A stretch of 64,000 nt of DNA from Schmidtea polychroa (Eukaryota). Both the position numbers and the translations under genes were made by a program. The notes below the pieces were generated by a model. That model saw nothing but the letters and a program-made list of their open reading frames with translations, made no database searches and had not been told where the DNA came from. The stretch lies in the NCBI GenBank assembly GCA_044892525.1, contig CM097885.1:15874001-15938000 (forward strand), given 5' to 3'. The stretch's first letter is position 1; each line of letters opens with the position of its first letter. Positions 1,822-60,652 of this stretch are shown one piece after another.

Positions 1822-3418
1822 ATGTTGGCAAGCGTATGGGAAATGATGAAGAGGAAAGAATTTGAATTTGATAATGAAATCAGCAGTGAATTGATATGCA
1901 GAATTTGCAAATGTTTAATGATAAAAGCTTGCCATGCTCCTTGCGTTTGTGGCTTTTGTTCTGATTGCATTGAAAATTATTTGGATGGAAAAGATAAATT
2001 CTGTCCAGGAGCAGCAAAACATTGTAGAAAGAAAATGATCAATTTCAATAAAGATGTTTCTGAAGATCATGCAGCTAATTTAAGGATTTCAGAAGTGGTA
2101 GTGAGATTCCCAATGCAAAATTGTCAATTTAAAGATGAATTAGAGGTGATGGAGAGCCACATGAGAACATGCAACAAGCAACCAATAAAATGTTTATTCA
2201 ATAGAATCGGATGCGAAATGAATGAGGTGGTAAAGGATGAAATGAAAGTCCATCTCATTGAGAACACTGAAGGCCATAGCAAATTATTGATTGATCAGAT
2301 CAGTAATTTGTGCAATGAGATGCAAGCAATGAGAGACGAGAATGTGACATTGTGTAATGAAATTATCAATATCAATGTAAAATTGTATTTGCAATTAATT
2401 TTATTGATATTTAGGATTGGAGGTGAAATTGTGCAATATTGAAAAGAAAGAGGCTGAAAACAGAGAAGATATAGAAGAATTGAATGAGGAAATGGTGGCA
2501 TTGAAGAATGAGAACCGCTCATTGAGAATGGATATGGAGACAAATATTGGATCAATCAATCAGGTTTGATTATTGATTTGATTTGATATTGATATGTTAT
2601 TGATGGAAAGCAGGTCAGACAGCAAATTGAAGTAAATTGAATCAAAATGTCAGCAGCAAATTGATGAGATGAAAGAGAAATGCGAGCAGCGGCTGCAACA
2701 GGTGAATGAAAAGGTGCTTTATTGGTTTTTTGAAATGTTTGAATTTGAGATTCAGTTGCAGTTTGAAATGGCGAAATGTACCTATGAAATTTGGCAGATT
2801 GAAACAAAATGTCAACAGCAAATTGATGAGATGAAAGAGAAATGCGAGCAGCGGCTGCAACAGGTGAATGAAAAGGTGCTTTATTGGTTTTTTGAAATGT
2901 TTGAATTTGAGATTCAGTTGCAGTTTGAAATGGCGAAATGCGCCAATGAAATTCGGCAGATTGAAACAAAATTAGCAAATGAAAAATATGTAAATTACGG
3001 ATTTTTTGAATGGGAAATCGATAAATTTTCACAACAAAAGAGAAGTAAAAATATTTACAACAAAGCGTTTTTTTCCGGACCAATCGGTTACAAAATTTGC
3101 TTGTGGGTGCTGATTGATGGTAATTGGGGTATTGGGGCTGGTTTCTGTTTGATGCGTGGGGCAAATGATGAGCAATTGGATTGGCCGTTCAATCAATCCG
3201 TGACAATCGATGTGATCGATCCAGCAAATGGCAACATTTATATGAGGAAGTCAATGAAATATTCAGATAGCCCTCTTGATGCAGCTGGATGGAGGAAACC
3301 GTCACACGACAGAAATAATTCAATTGGTATTTATTATTATCCTGATGCCAGCTCAATCTATAAATTAGCAGCCAAAAGTAAAAAATTGCTGCTCAGGAGC
3401 AGAATTGAAAAATTATGA
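1822..3418 (+). pseudogene. TRAF-like gene copy 1 (RING, Zn finger, coiled coil, MATH); probably disabled
   Basis: RING (CRICKCLM..APCVCGFCSDC), TRAF Zn fingers and MATH domain (FFSGPIGYKICL, MRGANDEQLDWPF). Relative to copy 2 there is an apparent extra A near 2635, a C->F change (VRFPMQNC) and an altered acceptor near 2420. Confidence 0.75.
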
Positions 3419-3489
3419 CAAATTTAAAAAAACATTTATATAAAAAATTGATTTATTTTGGGTTTTGATTTGTTTTATTATTTGCCTTT

Positions 3490-3930
3490 TTATTATAGCA
3501 AATTGCCGATTGCAATATCAATAATATTGCAAAATCAAAAATATTTAATATAAATAATTATTTTAATTAAATTAATAATTAATTTGAAATTAAATTTAAA
3601 TTCACCCGATTATAAGCGCTGACAAATCGCCTCAACAAATCAAACGCTCCTATGACGAGTGAAACCGACGAGAAAACCGCCGCTGATGTTGAATGAGTTT
3701 TGGAGAAATTATTGTTGCATTGAATGGCAATAAAATGCACTTAAATGCAATACTAAAACTGTTATATCAAATTGATAAATGCCTTAACATTTCACTAGCT
3801 ATTTCTGAGGCATTTAAACGGAAATCCGCAACAGCAATGCTGACAAAATGTTCGAAAATTGCTTTCACATCTGTTTGGGTAGTAATTGTATTTGTACTGA
3901 GATCCTTTTTAAGTGCTAGTGACCTGATTT
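3490..3930 (-). pseudogene. Unidentified coding-like fragment downstream of TRAF, duplicated at ~35050-35400
   Basis: The minus strand gives protein-like stretches (TQTDVKAIFEHFVSIAVADFRL; SLVIGAFDLLRRFVSAYNR followed by a GT donor). Part of the block recurs after TRAF copy 2. Confidence 0.3.
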
Positions 3931-9100: not shown

Positions 9101-9153
9101 GTTTCGACCAGTCAGAGGGGAATATTGTTGGTGTGCGCACACAGACGCGAGCA

Positions 9154-9471
9154 ATGGATTGTTGTTTGGAAGTAGGTTTTGATGTAATTTTTTATTGAAT
9201 TGATTTTTGATGTATTTTAATTAGAAATTCGAGATTTGAATGGATTGTTTTGTGGTTTAAAAAAGGTAAAATTCTGGAAGGGAGGAAACCAGTTTTGTTT
9301 ATTGAAATAAGTTTTGGAATCGAAATGTTTGAAGAAGAAGATGTTTATTACAAATTTATTAAAGCTTATGATGTTCCAAACCAAGATCTTATTTCTTATT
9401 TCGATGAAACCCGTGAATTCATTGAAAATGGCAGAAAATTTGGTGGAGTATTGGTTCACTGTCTTGCTGGA
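9154..9471 (+). pseudogene. DUSP12/YVH1-like phosphatase copy 1, 5' part, interrupted by the Polinton
   Basis: Near-identical to 25443-25760; ends at VLVHCLAG exactly where the element starts. Confidence 0.9.
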
Positions 9472-10455
9472 AGTAGTGTGGTTATATACCCAACCAAAAC
9501 AGCCCTCCCAACAAAACATGCCTCCAAATCACTTAAGCTATTAGAAAAACAACCTAAAACTTATACTTTTATAGTATTTTAACCCTATATTTTGAAAACA
9601 ACCACCTTTAATGACTCTAACTGTTTTAATCTTTAAAGCCTCAAACTCAAAAGCTTCAAACTAAAACCATAAAGAGAATAGAAAAGAAAATGGTATTATG
9701 AAAAAGTTAGAAGGCTACTTGAGGATGCCAACTAGCAAGTTGCTAATTGGCTAATTAAAAAAAATAAATGAAATCTTAATCTTGATGTCTTGAAGAATAA
9801 AAAATTTTATGAAAATAGTAAAACTGCTCTGAGAGGACAGTGGTATTTTTTTTTTTCACTGTCCTCTCAACAGTTTTTTTGATCCGGATCATTTTTTTTT
9901 TATTCAACCTCTTTCGTTTATCAAATCTCTTCCAATATACAAGCTGGCCAGGCTCATAATCAGAATCAATTCGATAATAGCAGCACACCTTATTATTCGC
10001 TTCTCGCTCGAATACGATTTCATCGGCGTTTTAAGTGTGCTGCTCGAAAGTACAAATGAATTCGAAAGCGAATCCGAAAGAGGTCCGAAAACAACCGAGA
10101 AATAAATGTGCACATTATGGGATCGATCCGGGTGTGTTCGAAAGACTGGTGGCGATAATTACCGGTTCGCCACCACACCCGTTTCAATATTTTTTTTTTC
10201 ATATTTATGTTTAAAAAATAATTAATTAATAAAAAAATAAAATAAAATAAAATATACAAGTACTTTATAAATATAAGATACCCACACTATTTTCAATATT
10301 ATTTTCAAATTTTTAATATTATTTTATGTTGAAAAAAAACTAACCTCAGATGTGATTTGAACCACTATCCATTTGAACCACTGTGCCAGTCTATTCCCAC
10401 TGCGCCATCAAGGTTTGAATTTTTGTCATTTTTTAAATTTTTAATTTATAAAAAA
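9472..10455 (+). repeat. Left terminal inverted repeat
   Basis: Reverse complement of ~23409-24405 with few mismatches; inner boundary approximate. Confidence 0.95.
10332..10415 (-). ncRNA. Candidate Pol III small RNA, variant copy
   Basis: Minus strand: AACCTTGA TGGCGCAGTGG (A box) ... GGTTCAAATC (B box) ... GAGGTTAG T8. The ends are complementary. Confidence 0.5.
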
Positions 10456-10564
10456 ATAAAATAAAATAAAATAAATAAAATAAAATATACAAGTACTTTA
10501 TAAATATAAGATACCCACACTATTTTCAATATTATTTTCAAATTTTTAATATTATTTTATGTTG

Positions 10565-10647
10565 AAAAAAAACTAACCTCAGATGTGATTTGAACCGCTA
10601 GCATTTTGAACCACTGTGTCAGTCTAGCCCACTGCGCCATCAAGGTT
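10565..10647 (-). ncRNA. Candidate Pol III small RNA, second left copy (in a 233-bp tandem duplication)
   Basis: Same A box, B box and T-run; almost identical to the right-TIR copy. Confidence 0.5.
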
Positions 10648-10887
10648 TGGATTTTTGTCATTTTTTAAAATAATCGATTCAAGTTCTTTTATTCTTTCCT
10701 GTAATTGTTTTATTTTATCTAATCTTTTCTCAGCTACTTCTACTGCATTCATGTAAAAATGTCGATACTTTTCATTCTCTACCACCAACTCTTTAATGTA
10801 TTCTAATGGTTCTTCTTCTCTTCTTTTCATTCTCTTAAGTTTAACTTCATTCAATTCATTTCTCATTCTTTCAATAAAGTCAATCAT
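10624..10887 (-). CDS. Small coiled-coil protein of the Polinton
   Basis: 87-aa charged helical ORF with ATG in AAAAATG context, divergent from the capsid gene. Its stop lies inside the candidate ncRNA. Confidence 0.55.
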   Translation of the reverse strand: MIDFIERMRNELNEVKLKRMKRREEEPLEYIKELVVENEKYRHFYMNAVEVAEKRLDKIKQLQERIKELESIILKNDKNPNLDGAVG

Positions 10888-10972
10888 TTTTATAAATTAT
10901 TTTTTTATTGAATTCCCTTTTATTTTTATTTTTTTTTTCAACTTTTATTTTTATCAACTTTTATATATAAAA

Positions 10973-12265
10973 ATGAATAATATAAATCTTAAAATTCAAG
11001 AAAAAAATAAATTAAATCTTGATTATAATAAAGAATTTACTCATGAAATCAAGAAAAATGATGTACTTAAAATCTCTCCAACTTCAGGATCTATTGCAAA
11101 CTTAAATCGTAGGGGTGATATAGTTTTTCAATCTCTTCAAACATCAAACCCAATAGATATTTGTAATGCCAAATTATATTACAAAGTAGAATTAGAAATT
11201 GAAGCAAACAAAGATATAACCCTAGAAAATAATTTCTTTCCAAATTTATTCTCCAACATGAGATTAAAACTAGGATCATCAGAAATTGAAACTGTTTTAC
11301 ATCCAGGAGTATATTCTACAATGTTAAATTTTATTTTGACTGGTTGTGATTATAAAAATGAATATGGTGAATTAACAGGTTGGATTCCTGACACTAATAA
11401 AGGGGATTTAGATAAAGATGGTTTAGATGTAAACCATGGTTACCATAAAAGAGCTGAACTTTATAAATCTAAAAAATTTGAAGGTTATTTTGAATTAAAA
11501 CACTTGTTTGGATTCCTTCAAAACTATAATCGTATACTTCATAATGTTTTTATAGAATTCATCTGTAATAGAGTAGAAGGTGATAAAAGATTGTTCTATG
11601 GAGCTGTAGATACAAAAGCTAAATTAAAATTATCAACACTTGAATTACATATACCTGAATGGACATTAAACCCACATTCTGAAATCAAACTCCTTGAAAG
11701 ATTAAATTCCAACAAGTCTATAAATGTAAATTATTTAAATAGAATCTGTAGTGAATTTAGTATGACAGAGGGTTCAACATATTCTATAAAGGTAGCAAAT
11801 TTTGCATACCGACCAAGATATATCTTGATTGGATTCAAAGAAACAGATTCATCTTTCCAAAAAAATAACAATCTATTTATTCAAAAGATTGGAGATGATA
11901 ATTTAAAAACAATCCAAATTCAATTAAATAGTTCTTATTATCCAATAAATAGAATGGAATTTAATATTGAAAATAATGAAAACATATTCCCATATCTAAA
12001 TTATATTGAAACATGTTATGATTTCAAAGTTGAACCGCAATTAAGTTTAGAAGATTTCAAAAATTTATATTCTATATTTTGTATAAATGTATCAGACCAA
12101 GATGATCGATTAGCCATAAATAATGTTGATGTTACACTTCATGTAACAAAGGATTCTAATTTTAAAGCTAAAGTATATACATTAATATTAGAAGAAAAGA
12201 AAATAGAAATGAAATTATATGGTGGAAAGATTTCAATTATTGAAAATGTTAGGGGAGATTCTTAA
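10973..12265 (+). CDS. Major capsid protein (double jelly-roll, Polinton PY / hexon-like), ~430 aa
   Basis: Motifs TLENNFFPNLFSNMRLKLG, RPRYILIGF, QLNSSYYP and KNLYSIFCINVS are typical of Polinton MCPs. Start taken at the AAAAATG at 10973. Confidence 0.8.
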   Translation: MNNINLKIQEKNKLNLDYNKEFTHEIKKNDVLKISPTSGSIANLNRRGDIVFQSLQTSNPIDICNAKLYYKVELEIEANKDITLENNFFPNLFSNMRLKLGSSEIETVLHPGVYSTMLNFILTGCDYKNEYGELTGWIPDTNKGDLDKDGLDVNHGYHKRAELYKSKKFEGYFELKHLFGFLQNYNRILHNVFIEFICNRVEGDKRLFYGAVDTKAKLKLSTLELHIPEWTLNPHSEIKLLERLNSNKSINVNYLNRICSEFSMTEGSTYSIKVANFAYRPRYILIGFKETDSSFQKNNNLFIQKIGDDNLKTIQIQLNSSYYPINRMEFNIENNENIFPYLNYIETCYDFKVEPQLSLEDFKNLYSIFCINVSDQDDRLAINNVDVTLHVTKDSNFKAKVYTLILEEKKIEMKLYGGKISIIENVRGDS

Positions 12266-12282
12266 TATTTTAACATTTTAAA

Positions 12283-13698
12283 ATGTCTTTAAATAAACCC
12301 TATTGGAGATGTGAAACTTGTAATTGTCAAGTTACAAGACATCATAAAGCAAGTCGTCTTAAAACTAAAAAACATACAGTAGGTGACCTAATTCCACGAG
12401 CTGGAGGCGATTTGCAATCTTCAAAAACAACATCTTCAATATTAAAACCTTTTACTACAGAAAAATATCCAGGTGAAAGACATTTATTTAAACACAACTA
12501 TACTGGACCAGGAACACGTCTAGATATTAGATTAGATGAAAATAATAATCCCAAACAAGGAGAAGAACCAATAAATAGAATTGATCAAACAGCTTTAAAA
12601 CATGACATTGCATACAATTCAACAAATCTTAGAGATAGACATGTTGCAGATGTGAATTTAATACATGATTTAAATAGTATCCAAAATCCATCAACCCAAG
12701 AAAAGATTCAAAGAGCTCTAGTTAAATTAGCAATGAAAGGTAAGATTTTCATAGGCTTAGGACACAGTCCGATCACCATGGGTGCAAGACTTCCTAGGAA
12801 AGCAAAAGATGTTGCTAATAAAAAGATTATTGAACAAGCAGATGCTGAAAGATCCCTCGAGAATATATCCAAGACTAGTTTATTAACCCCAACAGAATCA
12901 CAAATAAAATATGCCAACGAATTACACCATGAATTTAGAAAAAATAAAAAATATTTAAAAGTTCAAGTACATGAAAAAGATCAAACATGGTCTGCAGATT
13001 TAGTCTTTATGCCAACCAAATCATCAGACCCTGAAAAATATAAAATAATTTTAACTGTAATAGATTTATATACAAGATTTGCTTTTGCAAGACGTTTAGA
13101 AAATAAAACAGGATATTCTATTACAGAAGCATTTGAAAATATATTTGAAGAAAATCAAAGAATCCCAAAATATTTATGGTGTGATAAAGGAACAGAATTT
13201 TATAACAAAGTTTTTACAAAGTTTTTAAATGAAAATGATATTAAATTATATTCAACAGAAAACGAAGGAAAAGCAGTCGTAGTTGAAAGATTAAATAGAA
13301 CATTAAAAAATAAAATGTGGAAATATTTTACTGCTATTGGAAAACAAAAATGGAACAATGAATTGTTACAAAAGATTGTAAATGAATATAATAATGATGT
13401 ACATAGTTCTATAAAATTAACACCTTTAAATGCTTCCATGAAGCCTGAAACCATTAAAGTGGTAAATATTGAAAATGATGTTATTGAAAAACTAAAGTTT
13501 AAAATTGGTGACCGAGTAAGAATATTTAAATATAAAAATAAATTTGAAAAAGGATTCACAGCAAAATGGACAAATGAAATTTTTATTATAAATAAAATAC
13601 ATTATACAACTCCAATAACATATAGCATCTTTGATTTAAATAATGAAAAAATATTAGGTAGATTTTATAATAATGAACTACAGAAAACAGATTTTTAA
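12283..13698 (+). CDS. Zn-finger-like + parvovirus-type phospholipase A2 + retroviral-type (rve) integrase fusion
   Basis: N-terminal CETC...KKH; PLA2 motifs NYTGPGT and IDQTALKHDIAY; integrase DDE motifs WSADL, WCDKGTEF, VVERLNRTLK; C-terminal FKIGDRVRI. One uninterrupted frame. Confidence 0.9.
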   Translation: MSLNKPYWRCETCNCQVTRHHKASRLKTKKHTVGDLIPRAGGDLQSSKTTSSILKPFTTEKYPGERHLFKHNYTGPGTRLDIRLDENNNPKQGEEPINRIDQTALKHDIAYNSTNLRDRHVADVNLIHDLNSIQNPSTQEKIQRALVKLAMKGKIFIGLGHSPITMGARLPRKAKDVANKKIIEQADAERSLENISKTSLLTPTESQIKYANELHHEFRKNKKYLKVQVHEKDQTWSADLVFMPTKSSDPEKYKIILTVIDLYTRFAFARRLENKTGYSITEAFENIFEENQRIPKYLWCDKGTEFYNKVFTKFLNENDIKLYSTENEGKAVVVERLNRTLKNKMWKYFTAIGKQKWNNELLQKIVNEYNNDVHSSIKLTPLNASMKPETIKVVNIENDVIEKLKFKIGDRVRIFKYKNKFEKGFTAKWTNEIFIINKIHYTTPITYSIFDLNNEKILGRFYNNELQKTDF

Positions 13699-13709
13699 GT
13701 CGACAAGCC

Positions 13710-14501
13710 CTAAAACAAACTTTTCCATATTTCAGCTTCTTCTCTATCCAAATAAATATAATTATATTTTTCTTTCCAATGATTATCAACAAACATATCA
13801 AACATATTCTTATCAGGTTCAACATTTGAAAATAAATCATTATAAATCATATTCTTATCACGGCGATCTAATTTAAAAAATATAAAACAATTGGAATTAT
13901 TTCTTATTGAATTTTTATCTAAAGCATAATATGTTTGAGATATATAAATAACATTACAATTATTATGTCGACCTCGTGTAAAGTAACTCTTTTGAATCTC
14001 TTGATTTTTCATATTAACAACATCATCAAATATAACTAGATTCTTTTTATCTTTAGGAAGTAAATCACAATGTAAAACATCTTCAGGTTTATTAGAGAAT
14101 AAAACTTGAATTGCCTCCTGCCCTTCTTCACAAATATAATCATTTTTATTACTAATATCTGATTCTAAAATCTTTTCCTTATACCAATCAACCATATCAC
14201 AAGGTTGATAAACTTCTTCAGGACACCTATGTTGATTTTTAAAAATATCAATTATTGCTTTTTTAGTTAATTTATTTTCAAATCCACATTTCAAAAGTTG
14301 TAATTCTGGTTGATTTATGGTTGTAGAATAAAAGATTAAATTATTATAATCTAAAAAATCATCTTCAAGTAACATTCTCAAAACAAGTACATTCTTTCCA
14401 CATCCAGAAGAACCAACAATTAATAATCTAAAATTATCAGGAAATACTTTATTATTAAATTTACTCTTATGTCTATTTAAAATTGGTTTCCAAATATCCA
14501 T
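13710..14501 (-). CDS. A32/FtsK-like genome packaging ATPase
   Basis: Walker A GSSGCGKN, Walker B LVIFDD, TRGRHNNCNVIYISQ, IRNN. Start taken at ATG 14501. Confidence 0.92.
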   Translation of the reverse strand: MDIWKPILNRHKSKFNNKVFPDNFRLLIVGSSGCGKNVLVLRMLLEDDFLDYNNLIFYSTTINQPELQLLKCGFENKLTKKAIIDIFKNQHRCPEEVYQPCDMVDWYKEKILESDISNKNDYICEEGQEAIQVLFSNKPEDVLHCDLLPKDKKNLVIFDDVVNMKNQEIQKSYFTRGRHNNCNVIYISQTYYALDKNSIRNNSNCFIFFKLDRRDKNMIYNDLFSNVEPDKNMFDMFVDNHWKEKYNYIYLDREEAEIWKSLF

Positions 14502-14516
14502 TTTATTTATTATAAA

Positions 14517-15086
14517 ATGACCTCGAAGAGTTCCTCTACTGAAGAATCTTTGCAAGAATTAATAAATTCAAATAAAAATAAATCAGTAGTAATTGATGGT
14601 AAAAAATATTTTATTGGAAAACATGTAAAAGAACAAGTTAGAGCGAAGCTCCACGAAGCTAAAGAAGGTGGCATTCTTCCATTAGCTGCTTTAATACCTG
14701 CAATCATTGCTGGTTTATCAGGTGCTGCTGGAATAGCTGGAGGAATTGCAACTACAGTTCAAAAAGCTAAAGAATCTCAAAAGACAGACCTAGAAAAAGA
14801 AAAACTACAAACTGAAATCGATTCAATGAAGAAGGTAAGGCAAGCTAAAGGGGGAGTGTCCGTTGGAAAGGGTCTCTATCTTAATCCATATGAGGGGAGT
14901 CGGCAAAAGTCTCAGGGCAAAGGTCTCTATCTAAATGATTTTTTAAAAAATCAAATTTCTACATCTGAATCTTTATCTTCAAAAGATAAAGAAGATTTAA
15001 AAAAGATATGTAAATCTTTAAAGAATGGATGCCTTTGTAAAACTAAAAATGGTAAAGGATTATACTTGAAGCCCTTCGAACTATGA
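14517..15086 (+). CDS. Virion core protein with adenovirus pX-like hydrophobic segment
   Basis: GGILPLAALIPAIIAGLSGAAGIAGG resembles adenovirus pX (GGILPLLIPLIAAAIGAVPGIA). Three GKGLYL repeats. Confidence 0.65.
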   Translation: MTSKSSSTEESLQELINSNKNKSVVIDGKKYFIGKHVKEQVRAKLHEAKEGGILPLAALIPAIIAGLSGAAGIAGGIATTVQKAKESQKTDLEKEKLQTEIDSMKKVRQAKGGVSVGKGLYLNPYEGSRQKSQGKGLYLNDFLKNQISTSESLSSKDKEDLKKICKSLKNGCLCKTKNGKGLYLKPFEL

Positions 15087-15108
15087 TACCATTTTTGATA
15101 CCATTAAA

Positions 15109-15990
15109 ATGGTATATGAAGAAAGATTAGCACTTTTAAAAAAATTACAATCAGAACAAGATAAATATAATAAAAAAGATACAACTCAACATGCTGAATC
15201 TATAATATTAAATGAGGTAATAACACAACAACAGGGGCCAACAATTAAAGCTATAAAAGAGTTGGAAGATTTCAATGAGCAAGCAAAATTTAAAGAGTTA
15301 GAAGATAAAAAACAAAAAATAAAAGAACTAGAGTGGCAGGATAAAGAAAAAGAATCCAGTGAAAACCATCCTGAAAGAAATCAAAGAAAACGCAGAAGAA
15401 TTTCTAATGTGGAAGAAGAAGAAATGTTTTTAAAAACAAAACCTCTTAAAGTTGATCCTAAAATTAGAGATGATTTACCTCCTTCAATTAGACCCACATT
15501 TAATACTAATACTGAAGGATATCAAATAATAACAATTAATAAACAAAACTTTACTTTATATTCAAATTCAGAAAATAAATCACGTATTCATTCACAAAAT
15601 GTTTATAATAATGAATATTTAGACTTTGAATTTACAGATGATTTTTATAGATTACTTTGTGGATATTCTTCAGATGATGTTGAAGAAATTAAAAAATATT
15701 TAAATTTAATAAGATTAATAAGAGCTAGTTCTAAAGCAAAATATATTCAAGATTTAAAGAATTATTTAAATAAAAATGAAAAGGGTTATGTTGTTACAGA
15801 GGGAGAGGGATTAATTAGTGAAGGTGGTAAACCAAATCCCATCAATCTTTTTATTGAATTAAGAAAACTATTAGCTGCAAGGAAAGCAGGACATAATAAT
15901 TTAGATTCTGATATTTTAAAGATTTCTAAAGATTTGTTAAAACAAGGAATAATTTCAAAAGATAAATTTAATAAGTATACGAAGTTATAA
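15109..15990 (+). CDS. Uncharacterised Polinton protein (293 aa)
   Basis: Long ORF in the structural block. The C-terminal NPINLFIELRKLLAARKAGHNN..GIIS resembles a motif I recall from Maverick-associated proteins. Confidence 0.65.
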   Translation: MVYEERLALLKKLQSEQDKYNKKDTTQHAESIILNEVITQQQGPTIKAIKELEDFNEQAKFKELEDKKQKIKELEWQDKEKESSENHPERNQRKRRRISNVEEEEMFLKTKPLKVDPKIRDDLPPSIRPTFNTNTEGYQIITINKQNFTLYSNSENKSRIHSQNVYNNEYLDFEFTDDFYRLLCGYSSDDVEEIKKYLNLIRLIRASSKAKYIQDLKNYLNKNEKGYVVTEGEGLISEGGKPNPINLFIELRKLLAARKAGHNNLDSDILKISKDLLKQGIISKDKFNKYTKL

Positions 15991-16012
15991 ATACGAAGTT
16001 TTAAAATACAAA

Positions 16013-16477
16013 ATGACTCCTTCAATATTAGATTTTTTAAAAACATTTGGAATAAATGCAAAAACAAATTTTGATTTAAAAGATTATGCAAATTATTTAA
16101 ATTTAAAAATTAAAATATTAATGAATGATGAATTATCAAGTCTGGAGAGTCCCCTGAATATAATAATCAATTATCAAAATTCAAATGAAAAAGGATCTCA
16201 TTGGGTTTGTATATATAAGAAATCTATCTACTTTGATTCTTTTGGGATTAAACCTACTAAAGAAGTTGAAGATTATCTCTTGAGGGGTTCTCCGATTGAT
16301 TCCCCAAATGGTTATACTTTTAACTCTTTACAAGTTCAACCTTTGAATACTAAAATATGTGGTATTTTAAGTTTATATGTTTTGTATAGATTGAATAAGG
16401 GAGAGGGAAAGGGGCATACGCAGGATTTTAAATCTATAATTCAAGAAATTTATAATGATCTAGAATCTCTACTATAA
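16013..16477 (+). CDS. Adenain-like cysteine maturation protease
   Basis: GSHWVC (His), YFDSFG (Asp), QVQ and ICG (Cys) in the order of Polinton/adenovirus proteases. Confidence 0.92.
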   Translation: MTPSILDFLKTFGINAKTNFDLKDYANYLNLKIKILMNDELSSLESPLNIIINYQNSNEKGSHWVCIYKKSIYFDSFGIKPTKEVEDYLLRGSPIDSPNGYTFNSLQVQPLNTKICGILSLYVLYRLNKGEGKGHTQDFKSIIQEIYNDLESLL

Positions 16478-16525
16478 GGATTTTTACTATAAGGATTTTT
16501 ACTATATGAATTTACTACTAAAGAA

Positions 16526-17290
16526 ATGGAGCTTCACAACCCTCCGGAAGATAATTTAAAAAAAATGGTAAACATAATGTCAGATAAATATTCAAGAACT
16601 TTATCTATAAATTCAAAAGAATCAGACTTTACTATAAACTTTCAAGATTCAATTAAATTAGATCAAAATTTAAATTATGAATTGGGGCTATTATGGTTTT
16701 GTGCTTATAATACTATTTTTAATATAACTAAAGATAATAATAAATTTACTATTCAAACTCGTGATGGGCATAAACCAGAAATTATAACAATAGAACCTGG
16801 GGCATATGAGATAAAAGATTTAAATGATATACTTTCTAAAAAATCAAATGAAGGTATTAAAATTAAAATGGATATACCAACTTCAAAATGTGTAATGACT
16901 TTGAAGAATATAAAAATTAGTTTTTTAGATAATTGTTTCTTTCACACAGTTTTAGGATTTAAACCTATGGATATAACAATAAAAGAAGATAAAATAATAA
17001 CATCAGAACATATTATAAAAATAATAAATACAAACACAATAAATATTCATTGCGATTGTATAACAGGTTCTTATAATAATGGTAAACAAACAAATGTTTT
17101 ATATTCCTTTCCCTCAAACACAGTTCCTATGGGATATAAAATAGTTGAAAGAATGAATCCTCCAAATTATTTACCTTTATGTAGAAAATATATAATGGAT
17201 ATTAATTTTAAAATTCTTAATCAAGAAGGAGAATTGATTGATTTTAATGGAGAAGAGATTTCAATGTATTTACATTTGAAACAGGTTTGA
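16526..17290 (+). CDS. Minor capsid protein (penton, single jelly-roll)
   Basis: IEPGAYEIKDLN, VLGF, INIHCDCITGSY.NG..TNVLYSF, YLPL, NQEGELIDFNGE. Start codon uncertain. Confidence 0.82.
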   Translation: MELHNPPEDNLKKMVNIMSDKYSRTLSINSKESDFTINFQDSIKLDQNLNYELGLLWFCAYNTIFNITKDNNKFTIQTRDGHKPEIITIEPGAYEIKDLNDILSKKSNEGIKIKMDIPTSKCVMTLKNIKISFLDNCFFHTVLGFKPMDITIKEDKIITSEHIIKIINTNTINIHCDCITGSYNNGKQTNVLYSFPSNTVPMGYKIVERMNPPNYLPLCRKYIMDINFKILNQEGELIDFNGEEISMYLHLKQV

Positions 17291-17314
17291 AGATTCATTT
17301 TAAATTATTAATAA

Positions 17315-18325
17315 ATGAGTTCTTATATTCCATGTAATAGAGGTGGTGGAACAATAAAAACAGGGTTTAATACAGAAGAAATATTAACTTTAACAGAAAA
17401 TAAATATATTAATGAAAGAGGTGATTCAATGAAGGGTGATTTAATTTTAAATGGACACAAGATAAAAGAATTATCTTTTCCAACTGATGAAGCTGATGCA
17501 GTTAATAAGAAATATGTAGATGGTGTTAAAAAATATACTGATTTAACAACAACAAGAATTGAAAGTTCATTAACAACAAAAATTGATTCAATGGAATCAA
17601 AGCTTAATAATATCGAACAACGATTTAATGATAAATTTGACAAGTTACAAAGTCTGTTAACTGAACAAGTTGTAAAGTTAAATACTGCTATATTAAATTC
17701 TAAAGATAAACAAATTATGAATACTAAATTTAATACAATATATAAAATAATAAATGAGATGATTACATCATTTAATAAAAGAATTTCAAATTTAGAGTCT
17801 CATGGAACACACATTAACACCACACATAGTATTAGAAAAAGAGCTGCTGAATTAGAACAGAATAAAACATTATTACCCCATACATATAAACATTTTATAG
17901 AACCAAGTTTAATAACAACAAACAGTAAAGAATGGGGTGTTTTTATGGTTGTAAAGATTATTGATCCTTATTTCTTTTTGTTTGATGATGATAATGAAAG
18001 AATGAAATGGTTTGTGAAATGTGATTATAATAGTAAGCTTGAAAAGGGTGATGTTATAATGACTAGTTATGATTTACCACACGGAGATTGGTATGTTAAT
18101 ACTCATTCAAATGGACTACATAAAGTTAAAAGTAAGAATATTATTTTTAAAAGCACACTTGTACAATATATAGATTTAATATTTTATGAAAAAAAGGTTG
18201 ATGTTGATGAAGTTCGTAAAGCATTGAGAGAATTGTATAAAGATATCCTCTCAACAAGAGTTTCTTTTGATATCCGAGTATTGGTGCCAGATGGTGCTCA
18301 GAAGAATAAAGTCTTATTTTTTTAA
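17315..18325 (+). CDS. Putative fibre/receptor-binding protein
   Basis: GDSMKGDLILNGHKIKELSFPTDEADAVNKKYVD matches a fibre-type motif. It is followed by a coiled coil and a globular C-terminus, and lies directly after the penton gene. Confidence 0.55.
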   Translation: MSSYIPCNRGGGTIKTGFNTEEILTLTENKYINERGDSMKGDLILNGHKIKELSFPTDEADAVNKKYVDGVKKYTDLTTTRIESSLTTKIDSMESKLNNIEQRFNDKFDKLQSLLTEQVVKLNTAILNSKDKQIMNTKFNTIYKIINEMITSFNKRISNLESHGTHINTTHSIRKRAAELEQNKTLLPHTYKHFIEPSLITTNSKEWGVFMVVKIIDPYFFLFDDDNERMKWFVKCDYNSKLEKGDVIMTSYDLPHGDWYVNTHSNGLHKVKSKNIIFKSTLVQYIDLIFYEKKVDVDEVRKALRELYKDILSTRVSFDIRVLVPDGAQKNKVLFF

Positions 18326-18333
18326 TTATTAAA

Positions 18334-18930
18334 ATGGAAGAAGTAAGAGAAGAAAAAATTTACCCAGAATTGAGATCATCAGGATATTATTCTTCCAAGG
18401 CCTCGGCTCCCACAGAACTTGAAATTATGAGAGTAAAAGAATTTAAATCAGAAACCTTACATTTACAAGATTTATTAAAGCATTATAAAAAAATTAAAAA
18501 TAGATGGAATAAAGGGAATACAGTTTTAAAAGTTATAGGTTATTCTTTAGGATTTGCATCTGCAATATTAACAGTTATTTTACCCATAACTTTACCAGTT
18601 GTTACTCTTGCACCTGTAATACTTGGAAGTATTTCTGTGGCTGATGGTTTCTTAACTGAAATAGTTTCATTATCTTATACTTCTAAAAAGAAAAGTTTAT
18701 ATAGAGAAGTTTGTTTATCAATAGAATTAGGAATCTCTAAATTATTTTTATTTCAATTAAAAGCTTTGGAAGATGGAATCCTGACAGACGAAGAAATAAT
18801 GAAATCAAATCAAATAATACAAGATATAAAGAATGAGGTTATAAGATTAAAAAGGGAGGGCATGGTGGCTAATGTTATAAGTAATAAAAAAACATCTCGA
18901 GAAAAATGGTTAAAGAATTCTTATTTATAA
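18334..18930 (+). CDS. Two-helix membrane protein (adintovirus 'GasderminX'-like)
   Basis: IYPEL..SAP, central hydrophobic hairpin, KALEDGILTDEE. Family assignment is from recalled motifs. Confidence 0.55.
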   Translation: MEEVREEKIYPELRSSGYYSSKASAPTELEIMRVKEFKSETLHLQDLLKHYKKIKNRWNKGNTVLKVIGYSLGFASAILTVILPITLPVVTLAPVILGSISVADGFLTEIVSLSYTSKKKSLYREVCLSIELGISKLFLFQLKALEDGILTDEEIMKSNQIIQDIKNEVIRLKREGMVANVISNKKTSREKWLKNSYL

Positions 18931-19024
18931 AATGGGTTTATTTTTAAAAAAGTAGATCAGGTTGCTATAGTTGCTTAAATTAATTGTCGACATTTTATTA
19001 TTAAAAAATTAAATATCGTTGGTT

Positions 19025-22000
19025 TCAGTTATGGTTGAAAGCCAACCTTTGAATCATTAATTTATGATCTTTAAATTCTTTATCACTTAGACCTTTTATA
19101 TATTCAGGATCAGTATTAAAATATTTAAGTTCTAAACATATAGGATTAAAAACTTGAGAATATAAAGGCTTCTCGATTTCTCTCTTGGGATAAATAATTT
19201 CAACATTATAAATATCAAGATCAGTAATCTTTGTATCATATAACTTATTCAACTTTTCTAGATTTTTTATTATAGGGATTAAATTATTTCCAATAGGTAG
19301 AGTTGTCTTTAAATCACTTAGTATGAATCTCTTATCATCATAATTTGATAATGATACTTTTTGAGATTCTATCAAGTGAATATCATGGTTTTCACTTTTA
19401 AGTTGATGTATTTCATCAATTTTATCTTTATGATTTGGATTCAATGCATCTATATAATCTTGATGAGAAAGATTCTTTGCAACCACTCTCGGTATTCCTT
19501 TACATCTGTTATCCTTTACAGGTTTTTCTTCTTGTCCCTCTGGTCCTTTAGGAAATATAGGATATCTATGTGTAATGGTTTCTTCTGTTTCTGGAGTTTT
19601 AAATATAAATGATCTAGTTATAAATTCAGGGTTTCTAAATGTTTCGTATGAATATTGTTTAGCACGAATAAATATTCCATTTTCTATAGGAGTAAAAGGT
19701 TTTTCATCTTTAAACGAAAATAGTTCTCCAGTTGAATTTATTAAATTTGAAAGTATAGGATTTTCAGCTATATCTCTTTGTAAATCATGAGTTCTTATTG
19801 TTAAAAACATTGAATCTGTATCCATTGCATGCATTGATATATTAGAACCATATATAGGTTGTAAGATGTTATAATATGTTTCATACATTTGTAATTTTGA
19901 AAGTTCTAAAATTGAAAACCCTATAAATATTGGTTTGTTGTATGTTTTCTCAAAACTCTTTAGTTCTATTGCAGTAAGACTTTCAGAAAATACTTGTGCG
20001 TTTTTAAATGTAGGCTTTCCTAGCATACGATTATAACGCTTAATATCTTTGGCAGTATTAGTTAGGAGTTCAATATGAGTATATTTATCAACATTCTCCA
20101 TTGTCTTCCCAAAGACTGAATTGTTTAAAAGTTTATAATTATTATCTTTAAAAAGGTTACCTTCTCTTTTTGCAATGTTTCGACACCTAATGTTCTCCTC
20201 GATAAAAGCTTTCATGAATGGAGCTTGTTTAAATCTTATGACACTATGAACTTTTTTTAATATCATTCCTCGTGAGAGATAAAATTGGAGGAGTCTATAG
20301 TGACAAAGATAAAACCTTCGATCTGTTTGATCACAAAGAAGTTTCATTGTTGGAGGTTTATCTTGTGAGATTTGCCATTCAGAAAGTTCGTTGATATCAA
20401 TCTTTCTTCTTATGGGAGCTAAAGGAAAATATCTTGTTCCTGATTTTATATCATCTGGATAGTCGAGGTCACATTCTATAAAGTAACCTATTGGAAAATC
20501 TTTCGACGTTGAAAGTATTTCTTTCATAAGGTCATCTGTTGGGTTCTCTATTCCAGTGAAATCACTCATTGGTAAATATTGAGTCATAATTCCTGAATAT
20601 AAAGCTGTTGCATCTATATAAAGTATAAATATAGGATTTTTCATTGTTTCTAATAATTCTTTTAATTCCTCATTGTTAATTTTCATATATGGATCATCAG
20701 GGTGTTTAGAGAGTCTTCGGCTAGTAGTTATTGCATTTCTAGCTTTTATTTCTCTATTCCCCATTACTGAAGAGACTCCTCCTCTAATGTTTGTTTTAAT
20801 TTGGTTAAACATATCGAGGTTAGTTAAAAGATCTATAATTTTATCAGCATCTTCTATATTTGAAGTCCAAATGGTATATAACATAGTATCCCAAGCTAAA
20901 GAGGGTGCAGTTATATAATTATAAGGTTTAAGAACAAAAGAGTTTGTAAATTCTTCAAAGCAATCTGCTAGAATATAAACATCTAAGGATAAATACATGT
21001 TGGTATATTCTCCTAAAGTTTTACACTTGAATAATTCCCACATTTTTAATGCTCGAGAATATTCTTGATCTGTAATCCCTGATTGTAGTAAGTTTGAAAA
21101 GAAATCTTCTTTGTTAGGAAGACTTGTTTCATTATATCTTTCAAACGAGTCAACATAGTCATAAGGATATATTTCCTTTTGCTAAACATGTAGGATATTC
21201 TTCTAGAGGAATATTATTTTTTTCCAAGAATTCTCGAGTGATTTTAAAATTTTCTGGTTTCATTGTTTTTGCTACTGCATCTAAAGACATTTGGAGAAAG
21301 TTTAACGAGTCTATAAATTTTAATTTTCCATATTCAATTGATTTATATTTTTCCTTTGTTAAGCCGATAACTTTGAAAGAGTTTTTAGCATTTGCTGCGA
21401 GGTGTTTAATAAATAGATGTATGTCATATCCAAAAAGATTATGAAATATAACAGGTATAAATTTAGGAGTATGACAATTAAGATTGCAATTTTTATGAGC
21501 TGCTCCTCGATAATTATTTTCCTTTTTTAAATGATCATGATCTATAACTTTTTCATCAGGAAGAATATTCTGTTTACACATCCAACAGTTGGAAGTATTT
21601 TCATATTCTTGTTGTTGTTGATTAGAAATATTTTTGAGGATACTTTGTTTTTAATATTTTAAATATTTCATGTTCTAGATCATTTATATTTTTAGTAAAA
21701 TGATTCAAGACTTCTGTTTCTGAAATTCCTCGAAATGTATATTCTCTAGATTCTATGAGTTCAGGATAATTACTTTTAAATAATAATTTATAAGCAGATG
21801 GTAATTGTTTAGTTTTTTTAACACTATTAGGTTTATTTCTTTTTCTTAGAAAGGCTTTCATCCTCTCTGGTTTCATCTTCTCTCCTGAGGAGTTCCAGGA
21901 ATCCATGAGTTTATTTTTTTCTATTATTTTTAAATATTGATAAACCAAATCTTGTTTATGGTTTATAGATTCAAAGTCACCATAAAGAACTCCAACTGTT

Positions 22001-23381
22001 TGTAGTAAATTTGAAAAGTTTTTAAAATATATCTTGGGATTATTAGGCATTTTAATTAAAGCTGGATCATCTTTTTCACAAAGTCTTGTATGTTTAATCA
22101 TAGAGTTTTAGTTGTTGAATAATGAAGACATCTTTTACATGTTCCTCCTCCACTAGTTGGATTCTCTGGTGATGTAAAAGCTTGAAAGTTTTTTATTAAA
22201 ACATAATATTGATTATTTTGTTGTTCCAAGATTAAAAGATATATCTCCCTAGTGTTATCCTGCGGTTCGTTATCTCTAACTTCATAATCTGAAATATAAA
22301 TTGGAATAATTTCTCTGCTATTAACATGTTTCCCTTTAACACGTTCATAAATATTAATTTTAAGATTATTTAAACTTTCAAATTTTGGAATGTCTTCTAG
22401 TTTCATTGGATGTTTGAATCCTTTGGGAAATATTAATTCATTTTCATATTGTTTGTATTTTGAAACTCTTTGGGGATTTGTTGCTTGAGGATGTAAATGT
22501 GCAAATATTGACCAGATGAAACATTTGTTATCATTATTCTGTACATTTATAACATTTTTAGATTTAAAGGGTGTAGGAATATAAGATTTAGGATTGGGTG
22601 GTAATCTTCTCCAATAATCAATCACTAAAGTTTGGAAAGAGTTGAATACTAAGTTTGAATCTCCTAATTCATTTTCTACTTCCTCTTGTTTTGCTTCTGC
22701 TGCTTTAATTATTTCTTTGATGGTTTTATCAAATCCTTTAATTGAAAATAAATATTTAAAAGGTATTCCAATTTCAACATCTAAGGGTGTTGTCTTTTCT
22801 TCTGCTCCTCGCCAGTATTTTGCTTTGATTATAATTTTATATTTTATAACATTATACCTTGTCGGTTTATAATTTTTTAAAGCTTCAGTGAAAGAATTTT
22901 TAATATTTTTTTTATTTTTATTTATATATTCTCCAGGAGTTGCAGGCCCATTAATTTTTAATTGAAATTCATCTATATGATTAAAATTATCCCAGTTATA
23001 TTTTTCTCTTTCAACATGATCAGGTTCTCCTTCTGAATGACATTCCTCATCGTCAGAATTTTGTTTTTTATTTTTACATTCTTTTATATCTTCTAAATAA
23101 TAGAAATTTAGTTTTGTTGAAAAGTTACAATGAGGACATGTAAATATTTCTCTATTTTTCCCGATACAATTTTCAAAATGTTTATTATATCCAGAAAATA
23201 GAAATCTTCCTTTACATTTAAGACAAAGTTTTGAATTTGTATCATTAAGATTATTTTCTTTTAATAAATGAGCTTTCGATTTTAAGTGAGAAATTAATCC
23301 AGTTTTATTTTTAAAAACTTTATTGCAAATATTACAATTCATTTTTAGAAAAAAAATTTTTATTGGATACCCTGTTTTCAT
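19025..23381 (-). pseudogene. Protein-primed family B DNA polymerase (~1440 aa), split by three 1-nt indels
   Basis: N-terminal Zn fingers, NVQNNDNKCFIWS, YGDFES, FHNLFGYD, FIDS, KG(I)YPYDY, YIDATALY, KLLNNSVFGK, DTDS, DDKR. Frame changes near 22107, 21633 and 21173, each in an A run. Confidence 0.93.
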
Positions 23382-23408
23382 TTTATTTTTTAAGATTTAT
23401 ATTATTCA

Positions 23409-24405
23409 TTTTTTATAATAAAAATTTAAAAAATGACAAAAAATCCAAACCTTGATGGCGCAGTGGGCTAGACTGACACAGTGGTTCAAAATGCTAGCGG
23501 TTCAAATCACATTTGAGGTTAGTTTTTTTTTCAACATAAAATAATATTAAAAATTTGAAAATAATATTGAAAATAGTGTGGGTATCTTATATTTATAAAG
23601 TACTTGTATATTTTATTTTATTTACTTTATTTTATTTTATTTTTTTATTAATTAATTATTTTTTAAACATAAATATGAAAAAAAAAATATTGAAACGGGT
23701 GTGGTGGCGAACCGGTAATTATCGCCACCAGTCTTTCGAACACACCCGGATCGATCCCATAATGTGCACATTTATTTCTCGGTTGTTTTCGGACCTCTTT
23801 CGGATTCGCTTTCGAATTCATTTGTACTTTCGAGCAGCACACTTAAAACGCCGATGAAATCGTATTCGAGCGAGAAGCGAATAATAAGGTGTGCTGCTAT
23901 TATCGAATTGATTCTGATTATGAGCCTGGCCAGCTTGTATATTGGAAGAGATTTGATAAACGAAAGAGGTTGAATAAAAAAAAAATGATCCAGATCAAAA
24001 AAACTGTTGAGAGGACAGTGAAAAAAAAAAAAATACCACTGTCCTCTCAGAGCAGTTTTACTATTTTCATAAAATTTTTTATTCTTCAAGACATCAAGAT
24101 TAAGATTTCATTTATTTTTTTTAATTAGCCAATTAGCAACTTGCTAGTTGGCATCCTCAAGTAGCCTTCTAACTTTTTCATAATACCATTTTCTTTTCTA
24201 TTCTCTTTATGGTTTTAGTTTGAAGCTTTTGAGTTTGAGGCTTTAAAGATTAAAACAGTTAGAGTCATTAAGGGTGGTTGTTTTCAAAATTTAGGGTTAA
24301 AATACTATAAAAGTATAAGTTTTAGGTTGTTTTTCTAAGCTTAAGTGATTTGGAGGCATGTTTTGTTGGGAGGGCTGTTTTGGTTGGGTATATAACCACA
24401 CTACT
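23409..24405 (-). repeat. Right terminal inverted repeat
   Basis: Mirror of 9472-10455; ends CACACTACT. Confidence 0.95.
23448..23531 (+). ncRNA. Candidate Pol III small RNA, right-TIR copy
   Basis: A box TGGCGCAGTGG 23456-23466, B box GGTTCAAATC 23499-23508, T9 at 23523-23531, terminal stem AACCTTGA/TTGAGGTT. Confidence 0.55.
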
Positions 24406-24505
24406 GCTGGAAGATCAAGAAGTGGAATTATTTTGACGGCTTATTTAATGAAACATTTTAAAGTTGGTCCAAACGATGCGATTGAGACAATTAAGGAAAA
24501 GTCAT
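24406..24505 (+). pseudogene. DUSP12-like copy 1, 3' remnant
   Basis: Resumes AGRSRSGIILTAYLMKHF identical to copy 2, then breaks off at 24505. Confidence 0.9.
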
Positions 24506-25318: not shown

Positions 25319-25442
25319 TGTTTCGACCAGTCAGAGGGGGATTGCCTCTGACTGGCATTTATTCGGTTTCTTTTTCTATCGCGTCTGTGTGCGCGGTCTG
25401 GTTAGACTGAATATTGTTGGTGTGCGCACACAGACGCGAGTA

Positions 25443-26160
25443 ATGGATTGTTGTTTGGAAGTAGGTTTTGATGTAATTTTTTATTGAATTGATTTTTGAT
25501 GTATTTTAATTAGAAATTCGAGATTTGAATGGATTGTTTTGTGGTTTAAAAAAGTTAAAATTCTGGAAGGGAGGAAACCAGTTTTGTTTATTGAAATAAG
25601 TTTTGGAATCGAAATGTTTGAAGAAGAAGATGTTGATTACAAATTTATTAAAGCTTATGATGTTCCAAACCAAGATCTTATTTCTTATTTCGATGAAACC
25701 CGTGAATTCATTGAAAATGGCAGAAAATTTGGTGGAGTATTGGTTCACTGTCTTGCTGGAAGATCAAGAAGTGGAATTATTTTGACGGCTTATTTAATGA
25801 AACATTTTAAAGTTGGTCCAAACGATGCGATTGAGACAATTAAGGAAAAGTCATTTATATGTCCAAATGATGGATTCATGAAACAATTAAAGATATATTT
25901 CAACATGAATATCAGTGATGAAATCAACAAATGCGCAAATACAGTTTCTCAAGCTCAATTTAAGTTATCAGCATCTTCAAAAGATTTAGTTCAATTCAAA
26001 TGTAGAAAGTGTCGATTTTTATTATTCGACAATTCAAGTGTTGTTGAGCACAGTAAAATGAAAGCTTCGAAAGCAATAAATGAAAGCACAATTTGCAATG
26101 AGGAAATACTTATCGAAGCTCTTCCTTGGAATGATAGCAGCAATGCAGACGGGGAAATGA
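25443..26160 (+). CDS. DUSP12: DUSP12/YVH1-like dual-specificity phosphatase copy 2; C-terminal Zn domain incomplete
   Basis: VLVHCLAGRSRS, AYLM, PNDGFMKQL, then FKCRKCRFLLF..EH..C..IEALPW. The later Cys clusters are not seen and the 5' structure is uncertain. Confidence 0.7.
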
Positions 26161-26212
26161 AAATGACAGTGTTAAAGAATAAAATATTAATGATTTATTT
26201 GGATCTTATTCA

Positions 26213-30153: not shown

Positions 30154-30767
30154 CAGGAATCTTTATTGATGATCACAAATAATTTTCACTTTACTCTGAC
30201 AATCAATTCAACACTCCGCTCAGTGACTATACAATACTTATTGAAACACTCAGTGAAGAATAACACTCGAGTAAAACACCGGATTAAAAGATCCTTAACT
30301 ACTGATTGGTTTATCGCCTGGGGCTTTGAGTTGGTTGTTTTCTTTGAGATTCTTTGAATTTTTTTTATCATTATCTTTTCTTGTTTGTTTATTTATGATT
30401 CTTTCAGTTTGTTTCACGATTTTTTCTTCTTTCTGTTTTGTTTCTTGACATTTTGATTTTTGTGTCGCTTGTTTTTCTTACCAAAATTTAACCGTTAATT
30501 TTAAGGGCTAAAGGTCAGTGTCAATGTATACCTTGATGTAAATAAATAAATATTACAATATTTGTTTACTATTATCAAGATTTAACTACAAATGGATTAG
30601 CATGAATAATAATTTTTCAACTTCCTATAATTTCGTAAACATTATATTTATTAAAAAACTTGACCTATTGTGGATAACTCATGGTGCATGTGATGGTGGA
30701 TGTATAATAAATATTAATAATAAATATTAATGATTGTTTCAGCCGATTTTGGATGATTTTTTTTGTA

Positions 30768-30795
30768 TCGCGTCTGTGTGCGCACACAGACGCGA
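30768..30795. repeat. Perfect 28-bp GC-rich palindrome
   Basis: TCGCGTCTGTGTGCGCACACAGACGCGA. Related arms occur at 9131-9150, 25379-25439 and ~60505. Confidence 0.95.
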
Positions 30796-30971
30796 GTAAT
30801 AGGTAATTTATATTTTATATGTTATAAGTTATGTTTCTGTAGTAATAGATTTAAATCGATCTTTAATTTGTGGAATTTGGTTTTGATGGTTTGTTAATGG
30901 AAGAGCAGGAATCGTTTGTTTGAACTGGTAAATTGTGTAGAAATTTTGGATTTTTGTTTTTTAGTTGAAAC

Positions 30972-31664
30972 ATGGAAGAAAATGAAGGCCTGAAATGTCG
31001 TCTTCCAATGAGCAATATAGCGAAGATTATTTTCTCACCTGAAGGGAGATCATTCCAAGTCGAATATGCATTTAAGGCAATTGCATTAGATGGATTGCTT
31101 TCCGTTGGTATTCGAGGCAATAATGGTGGTGTAGTAGCTACACAAAGAAAAGTTCCAGATAAAATGATTGAGAAGAGTTCAGCTACAAGATTGTTTAATA
31201 TTACTGAAAGTACTGAATGGGTTATGACTGGTATGATCCCTGATTGTCGATCTCAAACATGTCGTGCACAAATGGAAGCAGATCGATTTAAATATAAAAA
31301 TGGATATGAAATGCCTTGTGACATAACATGTCGTTGTATCGCGGATATTAATCAGCTCTACACCCAATCGGCTGAGATGCGACCATTAGGTTTATCAATG
31401 ATAGCATTATCTTATGATATTGAAATGGATAAACCGTTATTATTCAAAACTGACTCCAGTGGCTTTGTAACTGGACATCGAGCTGTTGCAGTTGGTGGGA
31501 AGCAATTGGAGGCTAAAAGTTATTTGGAAAAGAAACTACGTAAAAATAGAGCGTGTGAAACTATCAAATACATAAAAATCTTTTTGACGTGTTTTAGACG
31601 AAAACAAATGATAATAATAACAAATAATAATATTAATAATAATGATAATAATAACAAAAAATAA
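30972..31664 (+). CDS. PSMA6: Proteasome alpha-6 (alpha1)-like, intronless, native C-terminus missing
   Basis: IFSPEGR.FQVEYAFKAI, TQRKVPDK, YTQSAEMRPLG, LEKKLRK; similarity stops at ~31545. Possibly a pseudogene. Confidence 0.8.
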   Translation: MEENEGLKCRLPMSNIAKIIFSPEGRSFQVEYAFKAIALDGLLSVGIRGNNGGVVATQRKVPDKMIEKSSATRLFNITESTEWVMTGMIPDCRSQTCRAQMEADRFKYKNGYEMPCDITCRCIADINQLYTQSAEMRPLGLSMIALSYDIEMDKPLLFKTDSSGFVTGHRAVAVGGKQLEAKSYLEKKLRKNRACETIKYIKIFLTCFRRKQMIIITNNNINNNDNNNKK

Positions 31665-31859
31665 ATAATAATAATAAGAATAATAATAATAATATAAAAC
31701 GAAGATTCCTTGCCAGTAGCATCGATTAAAAATAAAATAATTAATAAATAAAGTTCTAAGATTTCAGTGCAAATTTCATATTTAATAAAAAAATAAATGA
31801 GAATTTTCGACTATGAAATAATCTTATTTAATTGATTGAAAAATAAATAATAAAATTCC

Positions 31860-60500: not shown

Positions 60501-60652
60501 TGTATCGCGTCTGTAAGTTATGTTTCTGTAGTAATAGATTTAAATCGATCTTTAATTTGTGGAATTTGGTTTTGATGGTTTGTTAATGGAAGAGCAGGAA
60601 TCGTTTGTTTGAACTGGTAAATTGTGTAGAAATTTTGGTTTTTAGTTGAAAC

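Follow-up and report, generated by a model that had tools for sequence, protein, structure and literature searches.

A Polinton within a broken phosphatase gene fragment

We analyzed a 64,000-nt stretch of the Schmidtea polychroa genome (contig CM097885.1, positions 15,874,001 to 15,938,000; hereafter the window, numbered from its first letter) and found that it carries a Polinton/Maverick element of 14.9 kb, lying exactly at 9472–24405 and ending in AGTAGT on the left and ACTACT on the right. Both ends are bordered by the same 6-bp target-site duplication, GCTGGA (9466–9471 and 24406–24411). Together with the (AGT)2 ends and this duplication, the features that place the element among Polintons are a protein-primed PolB, an rve integrase with a DDE active site, a major capsid protein (MCP), a penton protein, an A32-type ATPase and a Ulp1-type protease. 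The ends, the duplication and the gene identities bear out an earlier reading of the bare sequence (the original prediction), which had called the locus a Polinton or adintovirus with a full set of morphogenesis genes. The most unusual feature of the element is its integrase, which is joined to a parvovirus-type phospholipase A2.

The left terminal inverted repeat spans 9472–10669 and the right one 23424–24405. Their outer arms are 99% identical, with 3 substitutions and two 2-nt indels across 766 outer aligned positions. A pair of near-identical repeats of about 1 kb had been predicted; the identity holds for the outer arms, while the lengths differ (~1198 bp on the left, ~982 bp on the right), because an extra 233-bp unit sits in the left repeat as part of a tandem duplication (10210–10669). 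This unit is ~90% identical to the adjoining copy. The left repeat also contains a near-perfect hairpin (9820–9879; -29.4 kcal/mol, z -7.3, with 0 of 200 shuffles equally stable) that has a mirror copy in the right repeat near 24000–24060, and a smaller hairpin at 9727–9757; either might conceivably serve as a terminator, an origin or a packaging site. Some 28 nt at the MCP start (10965–10995) are repeated just upstream of the polymerase gene (23385–23410), as if the inverted repeat had formerly extended into both terminal genes.

The element sits in the catalytic loop of a dual-specificity phosphatase gene fragment, which it interrupts. A paralogous, empty copy of the site lies 1 kb from the element (25409–25854, plus strand; Pfam DSPc E 1.9e-21), with 3 mismatches to the interrupted copy in 352 bases and none in a further 94 (3/446 overall). 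Because of the near-identical inverted repeats and this empty twin site, the insertion is likely recent, as had been proposed. The phosphatase fragment is intronless and locally duplicated (9120–9471, 24412–24505 and 25409–26200) between long ATT microsatellites, with the element in one copy.

The lipase-integrase fusion and the virion genes

The integrase ORF (open reading frame; 12283–13698, plus strand) encodes 471 residues that comprise, in order, a zinc finger, a GG motif, a phospholipase A2 (~residues 67–160), a GxG motif, a linker and an rve integrase of the DDE type. Both enzymes scored above their Pfam cut-offs (PF08398, residues 67–148; PF00665, residues 230–323). The original prediction was right about the integrase and missed the phospholipase in the same ORF. 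A profile built from 30 fusion proteins matched retroviral integrases and gave a weak match to parvovirus capsid proteins (E 0.007); a PDB sequence search with the lipase piece alone gave no match.

We then looked at conservation in the best 120 of 988 homologues, to which all counts out of 120 refer. The lipase His/Asp/Asp residues are kept in 112 and the integrase DDE residues in 119; both sites are kept in 111/120, a biased figure, as the fusion was the query, the ranking favours fusions and only the best matches were counted, and the set gives no frequency of the fusion among Polintons. Both active sites are kept in homologues down to ~37–45% identity, on short as well as megabase contigs. 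Of the glycines ahead of the lipase, G41 is present in 94/120 and G42 in 81/120, with 24 gapped; behind it G158 is present in 119/120 and G160 in 95/120. The linker after GxG ranges from 6 to more than 48 residues across homologues while the motif is constant. A read-through accident was rejected as the cause of the fusion, which is common to most of these homologues. A metagenome scan returned six contigs, each under 1.8 kb.

No chromodomain was found in the integrase ORF by Pfam. The protein ends where 106 of the 120 homologues have no extension; the other 14 carry a chromodomain extension and group as a single clade when 118 integrase cores, after removal of 3 short rows, are placed in a FastTree tree. 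We did not find a lipase-integrase fusion in the literature searched, which left subscription papers and Repbase largely outside, and Fig. 1 of one source (PMC3671162) marks lipase domains and could show such a fusion. Described Maverick lipases are separate proteins (PMC8502044, PMC5803895).

Nine ORFs of the element are open, with no stop or frameshift, and are packed with spacers of 8–48 nt, in agreement with the original prediction. The MCP gene (10973–12265, plus strand) matches PF21738 over model positions 2–313 of 316 (E 1.4e-26; 93.9 bits, cut-off 27) and has homologues in L007 and L008, two IMG/VR relatives that carry equivalents of the core set. A sequence search of the PDB gave no match for the MCP. 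The penton protein (16526–17290, plus strand; 254 residues) has no Pfam match and was modelled with AlphaFold2 as a single jelly-roll, with a predicted local distance difference test (pLDDT) score of 85.6 from a 41-sequence alignment and 35.9 from the single sequence. In Foldseek the mavirus penton came top (E 8.6e-11), followed by adenovirus and Sputnik pentons. A VIA structure comparison gave Z 13.5 (root-mean-square deviation 9.1, 224 aligned); chains with Z of at least 8 numbered 7 of 48,161, and all 7 come from viral capsid entries. The jelly-roll folds on which the capsid assignments had been staked were thus recovered, with a structural model in the case of the penton and a profile match in that of the MCP.

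The maturation protease is of the adenain/Ulp1 type (16013–16477, plus strand; 154 residues), with His63-Asp75-Cys116 present. Its single sequence gave no match in a PDB sequence search, and a two-sequence profile matched African swine fever virus (ASFV) pS273R (E 6e-5) and adenain (E 7e-4). The packaging ATPase is of the A32/FtsK type (13710–14501, minus strand; 263 residues; PF04665 E 3.5e-8). Viral-contig scans with the ATPase and with the penton alignment gave no matches. A pX-like core protein (14517–15086, plus strand; 189 residues) carries six GG/GxG motifs; its match to PF05829 is below cut-off (E 0.038; 14.3 bits, cut-off 25), and its counterparts in L007 and L008 show an equal sub-threshold match. 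The next ORF (15109–15990, plus strand; 293 residues) is a conserved Polinton ORF of unknown function, with a tblastn match to L008 (E 1.5e-5), no Pfam match and no usable Atlas match.

An adenovirus-like fibre had been predicted. The ORF in question (17315–18325, plus strand; 336 residues) resembles phage tail fibres rather than the adenovirus fibre, and consists of a phage-tail-fibre-type repeat (residues 25–80), a likely coiled coil and a variable C-terminal part. Residues 35–95 match phage tail fibre families, the best 150 of 706 matches at E 0.001 centre on the repeat, and 6 of 9 sampled distant matches in turn match PF03906; Atlas leads were all under 0.9. Its closest relative is P0226; the two proteins differ at 4 of 240 residues in the first part and at 25 of 75 in residues 241–315, a pattern that a binding head would show if it had been swapped or evolved fast. 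The likely membrane protein (18334–18930, plus strand; 198 residues) is hydrophobic and has no family match better than a weak one to a PHROG membrane protein (E 0.009); it is 25–26% identical to hydrophobic ORFs of L007 and L008, again weakly. A candidate gene of 87 residues, likely a coiled coil with weak matches only, lies head-to-head with the MCP gene and ends inside the left repeat (10624–10887, minus strand). Altogether, the predicted identities stood for the MCP, penton, protease, ATPase and integrase; the pX-like and membrane proteins stayed at the weak matches given above.

The polymerase and the terminal-repeat units

The polymerase gene (19025–23381, minus strand) encodes a protein-primed DNA polymerase B with an N-terminal zinc finger and a vOTU-like region, and is spread over four frames with breaks near 22100, 21640 and 21200. 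The last piece scores above the PF03175 cut-off, the gene retains exonuclease and polymerase motifs, and the OTU-like region at the N-terminus matches that of relatives at the level of motifs. The single-ORF relatives P0221 (1341 residues) and P0222 (1441 residues) are colinear with window frames -3, -2, -3 and -1, at 33–54% identity. Introns were rejected as the cause of the breaks, since the junctions have no spare sequence relative to these two proteins. The polymerase groups with those of L008 and L009 and has no match to the L007-type polymerase at E 0.01; its alignment found one relative among viral contigs, at 34%. L007 (42–1403) carries a virion module homologous to the window's together with a polymerase of another type, a pairing that looks like the module swaps described for adintoviruses.

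Because the polymerase gene is broken in three places, this copy is likely unable to replicate itself. In addition, three conserved positions are substituted: a vOTU catalytic position (kept in 4 of 5 relatives scanned, the fifth having no motif match), a zinc ligand of the integrase ORF (kept in 10/10 relatives shown) and one position of the ATPase Walker A motif (kept in 2/2 relatives compared). The copy had been called near-intact, a reading that the frameshifts and these substitutions do not support as far as function goes. It also falls outside the published definition of an intact Maverick, in which all core ORFs are uninterrupted (PMC8097293), its polymerase being in four frames in the assembly. 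Of the 24 sequencing runs listed, 20 contain part of 13500–23400, and 6 contain half or more of its words; these 6 belong to 2 studies, one of them perhaps the source. No RNA run was among those listed.

The terminal repeats contain tRNA-like units with the box A and box B promoter elements of RNA polymerase III (Pol III). Two units lie on the minus strand of the left repeat, an outer one at 10335–10420 that is diverged between the boxes and an inner one at 10565–10650 that is followed by a T run, and one lies on the plus strand of the right repeat (~23445–23525). The boxes are identical among the copies and the spacer between them differs. Strict box A and box B pairs occur just three times in the 64 kb, on both strands, all in the repeat units; block shuffles of the repeat yielded a strict pair in 1 of 2000 cases and a pair under relaxed rules in 147 of 2000, the motifs having been applied after the sequence had been seen. 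This unit (unit 1) is ~75 nt long and folds no better than its shuffles (z +0.5, -0.1 and +0.5). ARAGORN found no tRNA in it, and no Rfam family reached threshold for the terminal-repeat units. A second, CpG-rich structured unit of 276 nt (unit 2; 9917–10192, minus strand, with a mirror at 23685–23960, plus strand) has weak box A/B-like sites that match under relaxed rules only. For its right-hand copy the folding z was -3.5 on the outward strand, that of the box units, and -1.2 on the inward strand; its CpG observed/expected ratio is 1.6 versus 0.37 in the coding part. We also searched viral contigs for homologues that might show covariation and found none: a 16-mer of unit 1 matched 12 contigs, none of which had proteins of the element or more than 22 aligned bases, and an 18-mer of unit 2 matched no contig. 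The box pairs support a Pol III promoter-like character for the units. Of the VA-like RNA (virus-associated RNA) that had been predicted here, the promoter boxes are thus present and the VA-like folding is absent.

The host DNA is AT-rich, and copies of TRAF-type, proteasome and phosphatase genes flank the element. A RING/zf-TRAF/MATH gene occurs in three dispersed copies (1473–3775, 32855–35417 and 62979–64000) that are 88–94% alike and ~31 kb apart, and another segment, which contains a proteasome alpha subunit fragment free of introns, occurs twice (30544–32393 and 60281–62001). An ORF resembling a Gypsy-type RNase H/integrase lies at 38176–39828 between two identical 101-bp direct repeats, and putative hAT-like transposase fragments were seen by eye at 29.4–30.2 kb and 50.0–51.2 kb.

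A candidate packaged precursor and its relation to known systems

We think it fairly probable that the element is a recent, integrase-inserted copy with a broken polymerase, from a lineage whose lipase-integrase fusion is predicted to be cut by its own protease in the particle. The protease of mavirus cleaves at GG|X and GX|G; the particles of this virophage contain both its integrase and a protease-cleaved hydrolase (PMC6048507). Because the conserved GG and GxG motifs that flank the lipase are of the kind that this protease cuts, we infer a packaged, protease-processed precursor; Polinton lipases have been proposed to be packaged entry factors (PMC4642659). In intact relatives, replication would be protein-primed and start from the inverted repeats, and the ATPase would package the genome into a capsid of MCP and penton. 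The precursor would be loaded into the particle together with the core proteins and cleaved at GG and GxG by the maturation protease; the freed lipase might then breach a membrane at entry and the freed integrase insert the genome on arrival. The present copy would be mobilised solely in trans, and the box A/box B units of its repeats would likely recruit Pol III factors.

The fusion could instead be neither processed nor packaged as a unit: a compact genome may simply tolerate the joined genes, and the glycine motifs would then be structural. This would fit L008, where lipase and integrase lie in separate adjacent ORFs, L009, which has an integrase match and no lipase match ahead of it, and other Mavericks, in which the lipase belongs to a capsid-like or pX protein of its own (PMC5803895, PMC8502044). 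We nevertheless consider it somewhat unlikely: both active sites persist in distant homologues, on short and on megabase contigs, the glycine motif stays although the linker varies so widely, and the L008 split resembles a single frame change inside one tblastn-colinear match. A separate question is whether the polymerase breaks are real. If they were long-read assembly errors, the copy would be intact and the provirus potentially active, in keeping with the nine other ORFs free of stops and frameshifts, the very young repeats and target twin, and the short A runs near the breaks. The break intervals, however, have no runs of 7 or more save one T7 at the margin of the third, and indel errors should not have left 64% of the coding sequence clean. 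Three conserved positions substituted in three proteins also point to real decay; we therefore regard assembly error as distinctly unlikely. The breaks might also be older than the insertion. In that case the copy would come from a non-autonomous sub-family whose own polymerase is dead and whose virion genes are retained, and helper Polintons would supply the polymerase that copies it. The polymerase gene makes up 36% of the coding sequence, so that under even decay all three breaks would fall in it with a chance of 0.046; one catalytic substitution lies there too, and whole-host sets with fragmented polymerases are on record (PMC8097293). Since the ATPase and the zinc finger are substituted as well, such a sub-family seems to us improbable.

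For the terminal repeats, we considered whether they encode VA-RNA-like Pol III small RNAs that counter a host RNA defence. The confinement of the window's strict box pairs to the repeat units, their rarity in shuffles, the constancy of the boxes beside a changing spacer and the fold of unit 2 on the box-unit strand all speak for this proposal. It is weakened by the post hoc use of the box motifs, by a unit 1 of ~75 nt that folds like its shuffles, and by the lack of an Rfam family at threshold or a covarying homologue in our searches, and kept promoter boxes would equally fit TFIIIC binding without a functional RNA. On these grounds we hold it to be doubtful.

Returning to the reading we favour, a recent copy of a lineage with a packaged, protease-cut fusion, several considerations weigh against it besides the bias of the homologue set. 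For the Polinton class, the identity of the inverted repeats dates an insertion only roughly, the fold of the MCP is a profile assignment, and simple decay explains three breaks in one gene only moderately well. The three frameshifts may be assembly errors, and the glycine motifs may instead be structural elements that close off the lipase fold at either end. Cleavage, lipase activity, particle and transcript are all predictions from the genes.

In itself the element is ordinary, a further young Polinton whose polymerase is broken: a genuine, young and probably defective member of a well-described class; the fusion with its protease-type motifs is the part worth following. A lipase makes sense mainly in a particle, and tied to an integrase and to protease-type motifs it is an argument for integrase in virions. 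Animal Polinton virions have never been observed, according to PMC8097293 and 10.64898/2026.06.19.733378. More broadly, there may be a widespread Polinton clade that makes lipase and integrase as one packaged, protease-cut precursor, with retrovirus-like delivery of integrase and perhaps Pol III small-RNA genes in its repeats, a suggestion that we put forward tentatively, as somewhat short of an even call. The fusion offers a simple bench test with two small proteins.

Adenovirus VA RNAs are marked by internal box A and box B, a T-run terminator, a stable long double-stranded fold and an abundant transcript that acts on host RNA sensors. The repeat unit, known from sequence alone, shares the internal boxes and T run and differs in its length of ~75 nt, in having no stable long-stem fold and in lying inside terminal repeats.

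Comparison with vertebrate Mavericks (PMC8097293), of which 134 intact elements are known, showed the same (AGT)2//(ACT)2 ends and 6-bp duplication, which are the commonest end motif and duplication length of that set. Vertebrate Mavericks measure 12.7–24.6 kb with repeats of 46–1447 bp, ranges that include our element, and share with it the polymerase, ATPase, integrase, both capsid proteins, protease and further conserved ORFs; the element differs in its gene order, its lipase fused to integrase and its broken polymerase. With mavirus (PMC6048507) it shares the penton fold, the top structural match, the rve integrase and the Ulp1-type protease. In mavirus the hydrolase is of the alpha/beta type and has its own gene, whereas here a parvovirus-type lipase shares the integrase ORF.

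Adintoviruses (PMC8502044, PMC11071296) resemble the element in their OTU-bearing PolB, adenain, FtsK-type ATPase, hexon, penton, pX-like protein and hydrophobic accessory protein, and a 'Fiber' label occurs in their supplementary maps (Starrett et al. 2021, PMC8502044). The adintovirus integrase carries a chromodomain at its C-terminus (PMC11071296), unlike that of the element. The original prediction had seen an unusual number of adenovirus parallels, which was an overstatement: they are not unusual because L007 and L008 carry the core set and adenain and pX-like domains are typical of adintoviruses (PMC8502044). The adintovirus lipase, PLA2X, combines lipase and pX-like tail on an ORF of its own (PMC8502044), whereas in our element the lipase is fused to the integrase.

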